From positions 1 to 55,356 of the IMG/VR virus record IMGVR_UViG_3300047652_000066: a stretch of DNA of 55,356 nucleotides, one strand, 5' to 3'. The DNA comes from a virus (lineage: Duplodnaviria; Caudoviricetes). Both the position numbers and the translations under genes were made by a program. Shown here piece by piece: positions 480 through 11,460 of this stretch. The notes below the pieces were generated by a model that saw only the letters and a list, made by a program, of their open reading frames with translations, was not told the origin of the DNA and searched no databases. Position 1 is the first letter of the stretch. Each line of letters starts with the position of its first letter.

Positions 480-1880
480 ATGCCGAGCACAGTAACACAA
501 AGCACCATAAACGCCAATAATGATGAATTTTTAACCGCAACTGAGCGATGGGAGGCTTGCAAACCGCCTTACACAAGCTCGCACATGAAAATCTGTGTTG
601 CTGCCGCTAAAATCATTCTCGCTCATGTTGATAAGCCCAGGCGATCTAAGTATGAAAAAGAAAATTTCCTGCGCATAGATTTTAGCAAAGCCGGCAAGGT
701 GACATTCTACGCTGAATATCCCAAAAAGATGGAGTTGAAAGGTCAGCGACTGGGCGAATGGCCTGAAATGGCTATCCAAATCGCTCGGGAGAAGGCAGCA
801 AGCATTTCGGCGGAAGGACTGCGGGCAGAGTCAGTACACTTTGTATTGAAAAAATATGAGGCTGATTTAGCGGCTAAGGTTGAGCGCCAGAAACTTGGCG
901 AAGATAGCTTTAGAACTTATTGCGCCCGCATCAAACAGATAGAACAGGCTTTTGGTGAGCGTGATGTTTTCAGTGATGTGGATTACCACAAAATTATCGC
1001 CGTTTTGGATCAATGGATTGCCACGAAGTCCAACAATCAGGCGATTGAGTTGTTTGCCGAACTACGCCGCTTATGGAAATATGCGGCACCTCATTTTTGT
1101 AACGGTCGGAACGTCGCCGCCAGTGTCGCAGATGACTATATTTCCTCGCGAGTGCAAAAGCCGACGCCGACTCGGTTGTTTACCGATATCGAATCAATAT
1201 CGGCCCTTTGGTTGAATGTCGCCTCTGCAACCTCAGTGCATCAAAAAAATGCAGTGCGCTTCATGATCATCACCGGGGTACGTCCCGTTAATGTCTGTAA
1301 CCTCAAATGGGATTTTGTCAGTACTGATAAGCAGGAAATTATTTATCCGGCAGGAATGATCGGCATGAGGGGAGCAATGAAAACTCAAAAGGAATTCAGA
1401 CTTCCAATTACACCATGCTTAAAACTTATTTTGGAAGAACAAGCGGCCTGGCGTGATTCTGTCCCAGATTGCAATAAAGAATATGTTTTCTTACAGCCGC
1501 GCGATCCACATTTGCCGTTTGCAAAGCGTTCCTTGGATAAACTAGTCAAGACCTACAGCCCCGAGAATGCGGTTAAAGGCATCCGTCACGATGGCACAAT
1601 TAAAGGGAAGGACGGGGCATTTAATACAATGTGCCGGAAGTTTCTCAAAAGTAATATTATCGCTCAAATGCGTGCACGTGGTTATTCGCGTTCCGATACC
1701 AAAGAAATAAGCCTGTTATGTTTGCACCATTCGAATAAAACACCCGACCCGATGGCGGAGCATTACGATTTTTCTGATGAAATACTTCAAGAAGAAATAA
1801 CGCTCAAGCGCCAGGCATTTGAAGCGCATGAAGCGAGTATATTAACCCAAGTTGCCTTAATCAGGAAAAAGCGTCTTTAA
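480..1880 (+). CDS. int: Tyrosine recombinase / phage integrase
   Basis: Arm-binding-like N-region (LGEWPEMAIQIAREKA), catalytic R in TGVRP, K in MKT, C-terminal LHH...EHY; at the prophage edge. Confidence 0.85.
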   Translation: MPSTVTQSTINANNDEFLTATERWEACKPPYTSSHMKICVAAAKIILAHVDKPRRSKYEKENFLRIDFSKAGKVTFYAEYPKKMELKGQRLGEWPEMAIQIAREKAASISAEGLRAESVHFVLKKYEADLAAKVERQKLGEDSFRTYCARIKQIEQAFGERDVFSDVDYHKIIAVLDQWIATKSNNQAIELFAELRRLWKYAAPHFCNGRNVAASVADDYISSRVQKPTPTRLFTDIESISALWLNVASATSVHQKNAVRFMIITGVRPVNVCNLKWDFVSTDKQEIIYPAGMIGMRGAMKTQKEFRLPITPCLKLILEEQAAWRDSVPDCNKEYVFLQPRDPHLPFAKRSLDKLVKTYSPENAVKGIRHDGTIKGKDGAFNTMCRKFLKSNIIAQMRARGYSRSDTKEISLLCLHHSNKTPDPMAEHYDFSDEILQEEITLKRQAFEAHEASILTQVALIRKKRL

Positions 1881-5047: not shown

Positions 5048-5717
5048 GGTTTGTTCCTTCATCGCCGTTAGCGCGAAGACAGTCGGTCGCTTTGAAATAG
5101 CCGTTTCGCTTCATGTAGTCCATTACCTGTAACACTAACTTACTGTCGGGATTATGCTTTTTCAGTGAGTGGACTAAACGGCGAATCTGCATCACCAAAT
5201 CGTCCACGGGTTCAGAAATAACCGGCTTCGAAACAACGGCTAACATGGCTGCGTAAATGAGGCTAACATCCAATATATGGACAGAATCAAGCATTGCTTT
5301 CGCCATGATATTGCCCTCGGCTATCATTGTTTCGTCGGCATTTTCTGGCGCGGATTTCCATCCTTTTTGCGTTGCGTTACTGGTGGATGATGGGGCGGAA
5401 ACAGCTTTCATAAAATCCAGCATTGACCCGTAGACAGGAACTTCCATGTGCCAGCAGCCCGGGCCAGCGATTATTGCCCGTCCGGTGCCATCATCGTATT
5501 CATCAACGTGAACTGACCAAGAGTCAGGCAGATGGATCGGGCATGGCCAGCGCAGGGAGCCGTCACCGGACGGGCAAGTGCAGATTGCTGCCGATGAGGC
5601 CGACTCTTGCTCAAACACCTGTGCAGCAATTAACTCTGTACCCAGATCATGAAGACCCAGTACCCGACTCAATGCCGCTTCCAGCGCCTTGGCATCAGCA
5701 AAATACAGTCCGCTCAT
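5037..5717 (-). CDS. Eaa/Ead-like mosaic phage protein
   Basis: CTCPSGDGSLRWPCPIH module and C-terminal IRRLVHSLKKHNPDS module. Confidence 0.65.
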   Translation of the reverse strand: MSGLYFADAKALEAALSRVLGLHDLGTELIAAQVFEQESASSAAICTCPSGDGSLRWPCPIHLPDSWSVHVDEYDDGTGRAIIAGPGCWHMEVPVYGSMLDFMKAVSAPSSTSNATQKGWKSAPENADETMIAEGNIMAKAMLDSVHILDVSLIYAAMLAVVSKPVISEPVDDLVMQIRRLVHSLKKHNPDSKLVLQVMDYMKRNGYFKATDCLRANGDEGTNHVD

Positions 5718-6247
5718 ATTGACACCAGTGTGTCATTGAGCTGATTCCAACGACTTAAGAATTGGCGCTCTGCTTGGGCATGAGTTAGTGGGAAAACAAT
5801 AATATCTGCTGCTGGGATACCATCGAGCATTGGCCAGAACGTCCCAGTGTCGATTTCTAAATCCCGGCGCTCTGTGGCGAGCATGATTAAATCTGCTCGC
5901 TTAACTGCAGCACTCATCTCTTCAGGCAATCCAAATTTTCGGCGGATCACTGCCTCTAAGCGTTTTTCAATTATATGATAGTCGGGCAGCAATTTTTTTA
6001 ATGGGCTGGGAATATCTTTGCAGTAAGCTTCTGCAGCATCATGCAATAACGCTTCGAGGTAAAATTCGGGTGGTACAATCAAGCTGGTCAGATAGGAATG
6101 TTGGGCCACACTGTAAAACCCTGGGCAATGGCCGGCATATCTGCACTCATTTGATAATGCATGTGCAATATCGCTAATGCAGATTGAATCAATATCTGGC
6201 TTAACAAAATCTAAACGCTGACCGCTAAAAGTGGTTATCCAAGTCAT
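5714..6247 (-). CDS. HD-domain 5'-deoxynucleotidase-like protein (YfdR/YfbR-like)
   Basis: DIAHALS..CRY.GH...YSVAQHS...ALLHDAAEAY. Confidence 0.85.
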   Translation of the reverse strand: MTWITTFSGQRLDFVKPDIDSICISDIAHALSNECRYAGHCPGFYSVAQHSYLTSLIVPPEFYLEALLHDAAEAYCKDIPSPLKKLLPDYHIIEKRLEAVIRRKFGLPEEMSAAVKRADLIMLATERRDLEIDTGTFWPMLDGIPAADIIVFPLTHAQAERQFLSRWNQLNDTLVSI

Positions 6248-7234: not shown

Positions 7235-7585
7235 CTAGAATTTTCCGGTCGGCTGGCCTTTGATATCGAATAATTGACCTTGGTCTTCTGGCAACATGGT
7301 GAGTTTGCCGCCGCGGTTGACATACATTGGGGTTTCTGTGGTGTCCTCCTCGGACGTTTTTCCTCGCGGAGTGGGAATAACAAAAGTCAATTTATGCGAA
7401 ATTTTTACCCGGTTCTCATCCATCGGGCTGAAACTGAGTTTGATAGTTACTTCGCCTTTTGCCCGCGTTTTCATGACGCCTTTTGCAACGTCATTCAGCA
7501 CTGCAGATAATTTGTTTTCGAAAACCCCAGCGTCCAATTCACCAATAAACTCCGGGATATTCGTTTCGCGATTTGCTTCAGACAT
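7235..7585 (-). CDS. YfdP-like phage protein
   Basis: FIGELDAGVFENK...PTPRGK.SEEDTTETPMYVNRGGKLT; usual partner of YfdQ. Confidence 0.75.
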   Translation of the reverse strand: MSEANRETNIPEFIGELDAGVFENKLSAVLNDVAKGVMKTRAKGEVTIKLSFSPMDENRVKISHKLTFVIPTPRGKTSEEDTTETPMYVNRGGKLTMLPEDQGQLFDIKGQPTGKF

Positions 7586-7603
7586 AGTTACCTCGCGTTA
7601 GCG

Positions 7604-7673
7604 AAAAAAGGCGCCGACCGCAAATCAGAACATTATCTTCACCCCTTTGAGTTGAAGAATCGGCGGCGGCGCC
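7604..7673 (-). terminator. Terminator/attenuator-like GC stem plus U6 before the yfdP-like gene
   Basis: Minus strand GGCGCCGCCGC...GCGGTCGGCGCC-TTTTTT. Confidence 0.5.
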
Positions 7674-7716
7674 AAGGACTTCACACAGCAACTATCACGA
7701 TCCTAACGTGATGAGT

Positions 7717-7853
7717 TTGTGGTGGCCGGCGCTGTGTTATTCCGGCATGCGGTTATTCCAGACTCTCACGGGGATTCATGACACCCCGCCGGACAGCTCT
7801 TTTCCGCAATAGCTGCAATGTCTTTCGCGCATCAGCCTGCGCATTCACCACAA
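7717..7853 (-). ncRNA. C4-like antisense RNA
   Basis: GTGGTGAATGCGCAGGCTGATGCGC...GCCGG(loop)CCGGCCACCAC: closing stem, GGCTGATG loop and final hairpin match the C4 RNA family as I recall it. Confidence 0.75.
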
Positions 7854-7966
7854 TCAAAAAGAGCGAACTTCCCACTTTATGGCGCCATCATTGGGATTGA
7901 TGTCTCTAGGCCGGAAGCTTAGCCTTGCGCCAGTCGGATACGGTTTTGCACGCCCGCGCTCTTTGA

Positions 7967-8475
7967 TTGTGGTGGTCCGTTAACGGGGACCGGCCGGCCT
8001 GTTTTTAAGCCGCACGGGGCATTCTTTGCGCTGGAGGACGGCTCAACAGCGTTCACTGCCGTGACAGGGAGGGTTACTTGCCGTTCACCTTCTCCATAAC
8101 ACACCGGCTAATGCCGGGCGGCCCGTTACGAATCTAATTAGTGCCGACCTTCCAGCCGACGCGGTTCGGATACTCGCACTTACACGGGCATGCGATTTAC
8201 GAACTCCGCGGAATCTATGACAGACGTCGCCGCGGCGGTGGTGTCTGAAAACTCTCTCGCGCTCTCGGGGTATAAGTTGCCACCTAACCTGGGGTGGCGC
8301 GGCACGGTGTGACCGGCGTACATGCACCGGCAGGGTTCACTGGATTTATCAGCGTAAGTGCGGCTTCAGCCGTCTATCACTGCCTCACCTGTTTGCCCCG
8401 CGTTAGCATTCTGGGGTGGCTGGAATCGAACCAGCTGCAGGGTGGATAACCCCAACAATCCCCTGATCACCACAA
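7967..8475 (-). ncRNA. Candidate large structured ncRNA (~510 nt), family unknown
   Basis: Closed by TTGTGGTG/CACCACAA; many long-range helices including crossing ones; tRNA-like T-arm; no credible ORF. Confidence 0.6.
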
Positions 8476-8552
8476 CAGAATGGGCATTGGACGCTAAACA
8501 ACGGGTTGGGTTATGAACCGGCCGTCATTTCAATACCCATGCGGTTGTGTGC

Positions 8553-8657
8553 TCAATCCGGAATTGAAGTTAATAGAGTCAAAGCTCCAGAACCGCCAAT
8601 GACAACGATAATCAGCACAACCCACCATAAACCGGACCAATCAGTACCCCGCTTCAT
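8553..8657 (-). CDS. Small membrane peptide, 34 aa
   Basis: MKRGTDWSGLWWVVLIIVVIGGSGALTLLTSIPD; ATGA overlap with the upstream peptide. Confidence 0.55.
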   Translation of the reverse strand: MKRGTDWSGLWWVVLIIVVIGGSGALTLLTSIPD

Positions 8658-8752
8658 TTCACACTCGCAGCCGATTTGCATAGCGCTGCAACAATCAAAC
8701 CCACGCACGCGCCGACAATTGCACCAATGACAAATGCGATAAATATCGACAT
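8654..8752 (-). CDS. Small membrane peptide, 32 aa
   Basis: MSIFIAFVIGAIVGACVGLIVAALCKSAASVK; GGAGAAAGGA RBS; GxxxG repeats. Confidence 0.6.
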   Translation of the reverse strand: MSIFIAFVIGAIVGACVGLIVAALCKSAASVK

Positions 8753-8882
8753 TTTCCTTTCTCCAATCGGAAGTAGGGTGCCTGGTCGCTTCTCCACCTC
8801 AGGCGGCAGTGGACCCTGCTATTCCCCAACAACAAGGATTCGGTTAATCTGGATATCCCCAACAACAAGAAGAGTAATCAAA

Positions 8883-9389
8883 GTGATCGCTGAATTATCT
8901 GCGGCGCTGTCCGCTCTTAAAGAAACAGCCGGATTGGTAAGGGTAATAAACGAAGCCAAAAATGATGCTGAAGTTAAAGCTGCGACTTTCGAGCTCAACA
9001 ACAAACTTTTAACCCTTCAATCTGAATGCTTTACTCTTGGTGATGCGATCCGAGCGCGTGACGAAAAAGTAAAACTTTTAGAGGCAAAAATTGGCGAATT
9101 TGAAGATTTTAGTAGCCAGACCGATGGATATGTCCTTGATAAACTTGCCTCTGGAACATTTGTATATTCGAAAAAACAAGTAATCGGAGGATCGGAAACG
9201 ACTGTACACCTTTGCCAACGTTGTTTTACCACTCGTGTAATTTCTGTGCTTCAACCAATCGCTGATCCTTTTTACAACCCGCATAATGAAAAATATTATT
9301 TTCAATCAAAGTGTTACAACTGTAATTCTACTTATCCAATGAACCTTTCAAACTATAAACCCTATGATCCCAATGATGATTTTTCCTAG
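8883..9389 (+). CDS. Coiled-coil plus Zn-ribbon moron protein (sieB-like position)
   Basis: GTG start 8883; N-terminal heptads; CQRC and CYNC; antisense to pL. Confidence 0.7.
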   Translation: MIAELSAALSALKETAGLVRVINEAKNDAEVKAATFELNNKLLTLQSECFTLGDAIRARDEKVKLLEAKIGEFEDFSSQTDGYVLDKLASGTFVYSKKQVIGGSETTVHLCQRCFTTRVISVLQPIADPFYNPHNEKYYFQSKCYNCNSTYPMNLSNYKPYDPNDDFS

Positions 9390-10699: not shown

Positions 10700-11380
10700 T
10701 CAAATCCACTCTCTTGCTTCAGCGTCATCAATATGCCTCGATTCCTTGAGGATGCCAGCAACATATTCAATTTTATCAATATCACTACTAGCGATAGTGA
10801 TTGGTCTATGATCTTGATTGATGCTAGAAAACTGATATTGGCCATCACGTTCATAATTAAATATCTTGATCATGTTGTGGCCTTCTTTTGTCCGCACAAA
10901 AACTTCATCCCCTGGCCGCACCCGAGTATTTGGCTCAATTAGAACGTATTCTCCTGATTGAATACGTGGCCACATGCTGTCACCTTTAACCTTAAGGCCA
11001 AAGGCTTCTGGATCATCATTATGGATTTTTAGCCAACCATCTTGTAATTCAGTCATATCAATGGACCCATCCGCACCAAGGATGGCTTCACCGATGACTT
11101 TTACGAGTCCTTTTTTCATTGGCTCAGTATAAGTCATCCCTGTCAGTCCGGGTTTTATGGACTGCATTCCATACTCCAGATATGCCTCTGTTGTATTTAA
11201 GAATGTAGCCATTTTTTCCAAAATTGCTGCCCGCGGCTTAGCGGCGCCTATTGTATAACGGCGAGCCATTTCGTATGTGACACCCGTTTGCTTTGCAAGC
11301 TCGGTCACACTAACTTTTTTATCTGCCATAAGCTCACTAAGACGCTTGGCAAAATCTGAATTTTTTTGATCTTCTACCAT
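10700..11380 (-). CDS. cI: CI-like repressor (HTH plus S24 peptidase)
   Basis: HTH (SVTELAKQTGVTYEMARRY), VKGDSMWP, MIK; divergent from cro; likely start ATG 11380. Confidence 0.92.
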   Translation of the reverse strand: MVEDQKNSDFAKRLSELMADKKVSVTELAKQTGVTYEMARRYTIGAAKPRAAILEKMATFLNTTEAYLEYGMQSIKPGLTGMTYTEPMKKGLVKVIGEAILGADGSIDMTELQDGWLKIHNDDPEAFGLKVKGDSMWPRIQSGEYVLIEPNTRVRPGDEVFVRTKEGHNMIKIFNYERDGQYQFSSINQDHRPITIASSDIDKIEYVAGILKESRHIDDAEAREWI

Positions 11381-11460
11381 AAGTAGAAGATTACCTGTAT
11401 CACACCATCCAGTCATTTCTATTTTCAGTAGTTGTTTTTTGCTACTTAAAGTAGCATTAT
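11370..11460. promoter_or_regulatory. OR operators (11374-11386, 11419-11431, 11442-11454) and pR
   Basis: CTAC-N5-GTAG palindromes (one CTAT variant); TTGTTT-N17-CATTAT. Confidence 0.8.

Follow-up and report, generated by a model that had tools for sequence, protein, structure and literature searches.

Independently assorting noncoding cassettes, one of them a conserved and multiply pseudoknotted RNA, in the early-left leader of a lambdoid phage genome

Phages carry several kinds of noncoding RNA. The 'species 1 and 2' of the T4 transfer RNA (tRNA) cluster are small stable RNAs that are co-transcribed with the phage tRNAs and released by tRNA-processing enzymes, the antisense RNAs of the C4, IsrK and P4 CI type are cut out by RNase P, and GOLLD and ROOL, both of them families in Rfam, are noncoding, phage-associated and sometimes located beside tRNAs. 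Here we analyse positions 7967-8475 of a stretch of viral DNA of 55,356 nucleotides (nt) (Duplodnaviria, Caudoviricetes; IMG/VR record IMGVR_UViG_3300047652_000066, positions 1 to 55,356), referred to below as the window. An initial annotation, made from the sequence alone, had described this segment as one ornate, pseudoknotted RNA of ~510 nt. Three further systems invite comparison. The prophage small RNA cassettes STnc100, Pas and AgvB/AsxR are short noncoding genes of lambdoid prophages, often neighbours of tRNAs and STnc100 and subject to reshuffling by recombination; their reported sites are near late genes, among them Q and holin, and they act by base pairing (bioRxiv 10.64898/2026.05.13.724894). 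The put RNAs of phage HK022 act in cis just downstream of PL and need no protein; they are ~70 nt long and consist of two stem-loops with a short triplex, not of pseudoknots (PMC9378689). Finally, RacrIF1 is a noncoding element carried by a phage and similar to a type I-F CRISPR repeat; such solitary repeat mimics are proven inhibitors, and their activity needs an intact stem with a basal C-G pair (PMC10651486).

Rather than forming one unit, the segment 7967-8475 is a mosaic. It combines cassettes A (7975-8136), X (8137-8277) and B (8255-8552), each of which is found separately elsewhere. Cassette A, whose family members were ascertained through two exact motifs and whose loci are partial, is present at 98 loci in 91 distinct contexts, a total reached after two exact-motif scans of IMG/VR and one of species-representative genomes. 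None of the 98 resembles the window past 8158, except for a 37-nt piece (8299-8335) in two of them (L113 and L118; handles beginning with L denote loci). Cassette B occurs without A in three loci (L070, L071 and L072), which were found by a scan with a motif from the right part and share the window from 8253 or 8257 to 8552; in L070, 693 unrelated bases stand where the window has 7975-8254. Cassette X stands alone in one metagenome contig, L140, which was found with a motif from the middle part and matches 8137-8277 over 141 nt at 98.6% identity and shares neither flank. The segment 7939-8137 alone has plasmid relatives, in 10 records of ~90 kb that are non-mobilizable and come from Pantoea, Leclercia and Enterobacter, and in E. 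coli relatives are present in 6 of 5426 genomes. When the region was compared by blastn with 50,697 phage records, 7967-8475 was unmatched among the best 30 of 39 rows, and cassette A of a relative had no match in the same set of records. The cassette borders are sharp and the cassettes themselves are kept at 74-98% identity across genera. They assort independently among enterobacterial prophages and ~90-kb phage-plasmids, where they lie among, or replace, genuine tRNA genes. The genomes of temperate enterobacterial phages belong to the most studied of all, yet unannotated, reshuffling cassettes of structured RNA turn up in their early-left leaders and in the tRNA regions of phage-plasmids.

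The initial annotation had been reminded of GOLLD and ROOL, a likeness that neither size nor any Rfam match supports, since those are single units of several hundred nt whereas here units of ~160, 140 and 300 nt assort independently. Unlike the prophage small RNAs, the cassettes lie in an early-left leader or in the tRNA regions of phage-plasmids, and A is far more structured; for Pas the comparison is by description only. None of the prophage small RNAs, put, Racr or the T4 stable RNAs shares sequence or architecture with A, although these are set apart in part by their published descriptions.

Cassette A is a new conserved structured RNA of ~160 nt with eight helices (Table 1), absent from Rfam. 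No Rfam 15 family reaches its gathering score anywhere in the window, which upholds the suggested novelty of the segment, and at E <= 10 the only match between 7400 and 9000 is a T-arm-like one to the transfer-messenger RNA (tmRNA) model (8393-8435, minus strand, E = 5.7). String searches of the open literature with strings from cassette A also gave no match. Its pseudoknots take the form of three crossings, of P2 with e, of c with a and of a with b. The alignment on which the structure rests comprises 51 distinct sequences of type 1, the window's type, from 75 loci; a second type, which has only the 5' half in common, and six chance matches to the motifs (L056, L058, L060-L062 and L064) were left out. 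Six helices could be aligned without ambiguity, giving 33 pairs and 1683 cells. Of these cells 96.4% are paired, against 85.9 +/- 0.5% when partners are shuffled, a level reached in 0 of 500 shuffles. Changes on both sides occur at 14 pairs and in 180 cells, compared with 58 in the shuffles (again 0 of 500), and sliding the partners by 1-3 columns lowers pairing to 37-48%. One measure goes the opposite way: the number of further pair types is 24 against 27.3 in shuffles, 498 of 500 of which were at least as high.

Helix P2 was tested with its register anchored, the three bases after an invariant CGG being compared with the three before an invariant CG/CT. Complementarity was found in 17 of the 20 testable combinations, with 8 distinct triplet pairs, and in 0 of 332 partner-swapped controls. 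The anchor is absent from thirteen combinations of the Pantoea type, and the rule does not hold for the sequence of the window itself, despite a 4-base pair (bp) match. A simpler test for contiguous complements gave a modest result, with runs of at least 4 bp in 19 of 33 own pairs against 33% of swapped ones. Hairpin d exists in 32 distinct versions of 18-37 nt, all of which are predicted to fold as a hairpin. Taken together, the covariation support for A is as strong as that for many curated RNA families, and a fold so elaborate and so conserved implies that A either binds some protein or RNA specifically or acts as a catalyst.

That the segment is noncoding, as first proposed, holds up well. 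Its longest open reading frames (ORFs) are of 80, 61, 52 and 51 amino acids and none respects the cassette borders, the longest (8085-8327) straddling that between A and X. In the family comparison there is neither codon-type variation nor a conserved reading frame: the variation is compensatory in the helices, and the lengths of hairpin d do not change in threes. A small ORF behind a GGAGG in cassette A was also considered and ruled out, as its end and length shift with insertions and deletions in hairpin d.

A second type of cassette A (L004, L012, L014-L016, L018, L020, L031 and L033-L036, with further loci L046, L050, L051, L053, L055, L066 and L107) has helices H1, P2, e and P3 of the 5' half in common with the first and a different 3' half, which suggests that cassette A may itself be built of two domains.

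Cassette X appears in L140 as a self-contained transcription unit: read off the sequence in the window's minus sense, it lies behind a TTGACA-type promoter and ahead of a G+C hairpin followed by a T run. No other homologue of X was found, an exact-pattern scan of viral contigs giving 0 hits, and its predicted fold is no better than that of shuffles (z = +0.32). For cassette B, a minus-strand consensus fold of four sequences has 87 pairs, 12 of which are changed on both sides, and the arms of its long basal hairpin differ among relatives with complementarity kept; the folding z-score of B is -1.11. The tRNA-like minihelix of B consists of a T-arm and an acceptor without D or anticodon arms, and its T-loop is canonical on the minus strand only. 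An exact-pattern scan of viral contigs for this tRNA-like part gave 0 hits, and both ARAGORN and the Rfam tRNA model found no tRNA in the window.

Table 1. Coordinates of the cassettes, their helices and adjoining features in the window.
Feature	Position	Strand	Basis
Cassette A, multiply pseudoknotted RNA of ~160 nt	7975-8136	minus, favoured by context	98 loci, covariation
Cassette A, helix H1	7974-7978 / 7987-7991		
Cassette A, helix P2	7993-7996 / 8039-8042		
Cassette A, helix e	8013-8017 / 8059-8063		
Cassette A, helix P3	8028-8033 / 8047-8052		
Cassette A, helix c	8068-8073 / 8090-8095		
Cassette A, helix a	8080-8084 / 8118-8122		
Cassette A, helix d	8104-8108 / 8113-8117		
Cassette A, helix b	8097-8100 / 8125-8128		
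Type I-F repeat-like segment inside cassette A	8051-8068	plus (complement of repeat on minus)	compared with the Serratia I-F consensus printed in PMC9981886
Cassette X, independent small-RNA unit	8137-8277	minus	L140 homologue, 98.6% identity
Cassette B, multi-stem element	8255-8552	minus	L070-L072 homologues, consensus fold
Cassette B, long basal hairpin	arms 8471-8489 / 8531-8549		
Cassette B, tRNA-like minihelix	T-arm 8419-8435; acceptor strands 8412-8418 / 8448-8454	minus	weak tmRNA-model match
Cassette B, closing stem	near 8309-8314 / 8465-8470		
Left neighbour, long inverted-repeat hairpin around ~90 nt	7846-7974; arms 7846-7865 / 7957-7974	minus	blast, sequence reading
Two overlapping small hydrophobic ORFs (context only, upstream of the array)	8654-8797 and 8553-8657	minus	ORF list, sequence

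The window has a lambdoid layout. An integrase gene (480-1880, plus strand) is followed by minus-strand early-left genes as far as 7585 and then by ~1 kb without translation (7586-8552), which lies upstream of those genes on the minus strand; on the far side is a CI-type repressor gene (10700-11416, minus strand), with plus-strand genes preceding it and cro-like and cII-like genes (plus strand) beyond. This layout places 7967-8475 in the leader of the early-left genes, and the sense strand is probably the opposite of the plus strand that had first been assumed. For cassette A in particular, context makes the minus strand the probable sense strand. All 20 of the tRNAs that ARAGORN reports within 1.5 kb of A (in 16 of the 91 contexts) have the window's minus sense, and in L041, L010 and L013 minus-sense tRNAs adjoin A within 2 nt. 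In L118 the minus sense reads from a repressor-like ORF through a terminator to a pL-type promoter (TTGACA-17-TAGATT) and on into the array. The promoter and the terminator around X in L140 have this sense too, and the canonical T-loops of the tRNA-like pieces are readable on the minus sense only. STnc100, whose covariance model (RF02076) has no match in the window, is found in that same sense in two relatives' arrays, scoring 48.1 bits in L024 and 34.4 bits, short of the gathering score, in L068.

We lean, if not strongly, towards reading these cassettes as a processed array of stable small RNAs that lies in the early-left leader and acts in trans. The array, we infer, would be transcribed on the minus strand, either from the early-left promoter or from promoters of the cassettes. 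Host tRNA-processing enzymes might then cut at the tRNA-like elements and a duplex-specific nuclease at the long stems, and the products would be separate stable small RNAs, a noncoding accessory cargo acting in trans. For an arrangement of a tRNA and then a structured RNA, the nearest precedent is provided by T4 species 1 and 2, although these belong to a different type of phage and are compared here by description only. The RNAs of the C4, IsrK and P4 CI type offer another parallel, as small phage RNAs that are processed and have an acceptor-like closing stem, but neither the stretch nor its left neighbour matches the Rfam models C4, c4-a1b1 or isrK. If the cassettes do yield processed stable RNAs, they would be the noncoding equivalent of 'moron' genes, and RNA-based counter-defence or control of transcription might be sought among them.

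Several points weigh against this reading. The homologues of X (one) and of most of B (three) are too few for a real covariation test. A promoter that would serve the window's own array was not located, even in a search by eye; the sole minus-strand promoter-like site found in the window is at 9663-9634. Among public RNA runs, one wetland metatranscriptome, kept as contigs, had 5% of the sampled words, but the support that it lends comes down to a single 158-nt contig from a relative, which gives neither strand nor level, is possibly carried over from DNA, has adapter remnants at both ends and covers 7853-7979 only, with 3 differences. A stable hairpin RNA in a relative is weakly hinted at by this short insert, which spans the left neighbour's inverted-repeat hairpin and comes from an RNA library. 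Lastly, base-pair statistics cannot settle the strand of A, and some of them favour the plus strand, on which alone several helix-end positions alternate between G.U and Watson-Crick pairs: the outer pair of P3 is G.U in 35 sequences and A-U in 15, the inner pair of helix c is G.U in 34 and G-C in 16, and a pair of helix a is U.G in 47 and A-U in one.

Might cassette A then be made from the plus strand, as an antisense or convergent RNA within a minus-strand array? Besides the three alternating positions, 196 of the 1683 cells are G.U and would be A.C mismatches in a minus-strand RNA, the reverse being the case in only 25. However, the structure was drawn with the plus strand in view, and when the minus strand is given an unbiased consensus fold, the score is equally good (-31.2 kcal/mol, against -29.6 for plus) and there are more positions that alternate between wobble and Watson-Crick pairs (13 against 7). 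As the consensus folds are equally good on both strands, the asymmetry of G.U and A.C was dropped as a decisive test. Moreover, the 3' ends of tRNAs in L041, L010 and L013 come so close to A as to leave no room for convergent termination, and no promoter-like site precedes A on the plus strand, either in L118 or in the window, where positions 7500-9270 have none at all on that strand. We hold a plus-strand origin of A to be possible, though not probable.

The arrays with cassette A also contain unusual tRNAs. ARAGORN reports a 'tRNA-Stop' with anticodon tta in Pantoea-type phage-plasmids (L006 1379-1462, L025 2765-2848, L039 6031-6114 and L063 6290-6373), where it shares the minus-sense array with A, and in L049, ~540 nt from A; judged by its sequence it is possibly an ochre suppressor. 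Directly adjoining A on its right in L002, L008 and L006 there is a minus-sense tRNA-like sequence with a D-arm, a T-arm and a CCA end and seemingly, by eye, no room for an anticodon arm. At this site ARAGORN finds no tRNA in L002 and L008 and a 73-nt tRNA-Phe in L010 and L013.

An alternative to the reading of a processed, trans-acting array is that the cassettes act in cis, with a leader that modifies RNA polymerase or forms switchable terminators in RNA-only antitermination such as that of HK022 put. In L118 and L004 the array immediately follows a pL-like promoter and leads straight to the first early-left ORF, and no antiterminator gene was identified there, so that A is placed there as put is: a structured RNA directly downstream of an early-left promoter, with no dedicated antiterminator protein. 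In both the window and L118, the minus-sense hairpin d with the U-rich run after it was given a terminator-like score. As this U-rich run also forms one side of helix b, which covaries, the pseudoknot could mask the terminator, and a switch is conceivable. Yet A, with ~160 nt, eight helices and three crossings, lacks the architecture of put, two stem-loops in ~70 nt and no pseudoknots (PMC9378689). It is also located at a distance from any immunity region, among the tRNAs of phage-plasmids of ~90 kb, is entirely missing from the close relatives L070-L072 and is unmatched among the phage records listed, and X in L140 is a stand-alone unit from promoter to terminator. A role of the cassettes in cis seems to us unlikely.

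It is tempting to go further and to speculate that cassette A represents a new functional class of RNA that rides with phage tRNAs, a triple pseudoknot that would cleave itself or capture a host defence or transcription protein, and in which the start of a type I-F repeat, as copy or complement, would make a structured anti-CRISPR. In contrast to simple mimics, such an RNA might pair with the repeats of precursor CRISPR RNA (pre-crRNA) or present a switchable Cas6f site. This we consider quite doubtful. The likeness behind it is that 8051-8068 matches the first 17 bases of the published enterobacterial I-F repeat in 13 identical bases, one extra base and 4 identical bases. Solitary repeat mimics in phages are established inhibitors (PMC10651486), and two of five host genomes that carry A have I-F arrays with that repeat start. 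The more restricted proposal, that A is an RNA anti-CRISPR against type I-F, either as a plus-strand repeat mimic or as a minus-strand anti-repeat that pairs with pre-crRNA repeats, nevertheless meets several objections. Where RacrIF1 needs its repeat stem intact, in A the basal pairs of that stem could form but the central pair is a G.G mismatch (G.A in Pantoea-type members), which would break the hairpin that Cas6f needs, and the two repeat-like halves pair elsewhere, in helices e and c, with compensatory changes. The first bases of the repeat-like segment vary jointly with their P3 partners across the family, which points to selection on P3 and not on likeness to the repeat. Three of the five hosts have no I-F repeat, and the likeness was noticed after the fact. 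An anti-CRISPR role is, in our estimation, very unlikely.

Nor does the opposite view, that the segment is functionless debris of decayed tRNA genes or acts at the level of DNA as an attachment site, an origin or a set of protein-binding repeats, fit the data any better. The T-arm and acceptor of B do resemble a fragment of a tRNA, true tRNAs occupy equivalent positions in relatives, and the predicted folds of X and B are no better than those of shuffles. However, DNA sites or decaying sequence would not be expected to show helices that cross and carry so many compensatory changes; the borders are sharp, identity across genera is 74-98%, and the integrase gene and its likely attachment region are ~6 kb away. 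Either account of the segment is very unlikely.

Least tenable is the initial annotation itself, in which a single plus-strand RNA of ~510 nt, closed by GTGGTG and CACCAC, is joined by long-range pairing from its 5' third to its 3' third: as posed it is refuted by the separate occurrence of its parts, at 98, three and one other loci. Its observations were in part accurate. The segment is GC-rich (58.7% G+C), and all eight of the listed pairs of segments are perfect Watson-Crick complements. Six of the eight, though, span cassette borders and, linking cassettes that occur separately, cannot be conserved, and for the only pair that lies inside cassette A (8032-8036 with 8092-8096) covariation gives 8090-8095 another partner, 8068-8073, with two compensatory switches. 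A pseudoknotted structured RNA is real, in cassette A, while the long-range pairs that were proposed for it find no support. The closing motifs are at 7969-7974 and 8468-8473, not at the ends given for the RNA, and belong to two different conserved hairpins, GTGGTG being the terminal part of the right arm of the left neighbour's inverted repeat and CACCAC being located at the foot of hairpins within cassette B. The three motifs reported as GTGAAC read GTTCAC on the plus strand (8051, 8083 and 8335), and are hence GTGAAC on the minus strand.

Chance accounts for much of the rest. In comparison with 100 dinucleotide-preserving shuffles of the stretch, helices of at least 6 bp number 24 against 25.0 +/- 4.9 and those of at least 7 bp 8 against 6.4, which is the chance level; only the longest are slightly enriched, at 4 against 1.6 for at least 8 bp (7 of 100 shuffles) and 2 against 0.4 for at least 9 bp (4 of 100). 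Neither strand has a remarkable folding energy (z = -1.29 on plus, with 11 of 100 shuffles folding as well, and -1.21 on minus, with 13 of 100). In G+C-rich DNA, structure is not demonstrated by listing perfect complements. Comparison with relatives overturned the fold that had been proposed here, yet uncovered a real one.

The long inverted repeat noted above belongs to the neighbour to the left of cassette A and moves with it in relatives. The relatives retain the stem although the sequences of its arms are quite different, and in L030 its loop holds an entire tRNA; long hairpins of this kind, with conserved feet and variable arms, recur along the arrays. A boxA-like reading of the conserved arm sequence was ruled out, the stems of relatives having unrelated sequences. 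The neighbouring C4 RNA named in the initial annotation is not recognised by Rfam (C4, c4-a1b1 and isrK models) in the window or at the homologous sites of a P1-like phage and mEp460 (L068 and L069); in L069 isrK (67 bits) and C4 (40.3 bits) are matched elsewhere, and in mEp460 the genuine matches are ~2.4 kb off. This C4-like neighbour (7696-7860) has counterparts in P1-like phages, which match it over 77-152 nt at 79-96% identity and adjoin tRNA-Thr and tRNA-Asn; there they are partly annotated on the other strand as the lipoprotein gene plp, and the segment is also conserved in Shiga toxin (Stx)-converting phages and mEp460, between the repressor and the early-left genes. Perhaps it is a further cassette like those described here, in which case the annotation as plp might merit re-examination.

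Smaller sequence elements recur at the borders of cassettes and within them. A border hairpin is found at 8140-8160 in the window, where the copy is degenerate, at 5676-5700 in L118 and in the flanks of L004, L015, L030 and L041; it has a G+C stem of 4-5 bp that varies compensatorily and a loop that reads TCTTTC on the plus and GAAAGA on the minus strand, followed by TGTCA. It may be a punctuation mark or a protein-binding site, and it resembles the boxB hairpins of N utilisation. The minus-sense motif GGCAGUGA (TCACTGCC on the plus strand) is shared by cassette A (8057-8064) and cassette B (8376-8383), and is present also in a third kind of cassette, in L118 (at about 5712-5726), L113, L138 and L139.

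Upstream of the array, in the minus sense, are the two small hydrophobic ORFs of 47 amino acids and, from an ATG at 8657, 34 amino acids, which overlap at an ATGA stop-start. The pair is kept in L070 and missing from L071 and L072, in which, according to the blast layout, a conserved piece of the leader (8778-8812) adjoins cassette B directly; possibly the pair was inserted into the leader and encodes small membrane proteins. Between these ORFs and a plus-strand ORF at 8883-9389 there is a 14-base direct repeat in two exact copies (8823-8836 and 8856-8869), which by their sequence look like candidate operator sites. The piece 8778-8812, downstream of these repeats in the minus sense, is conserved at the head of the arrays of L071, L072 and L133.

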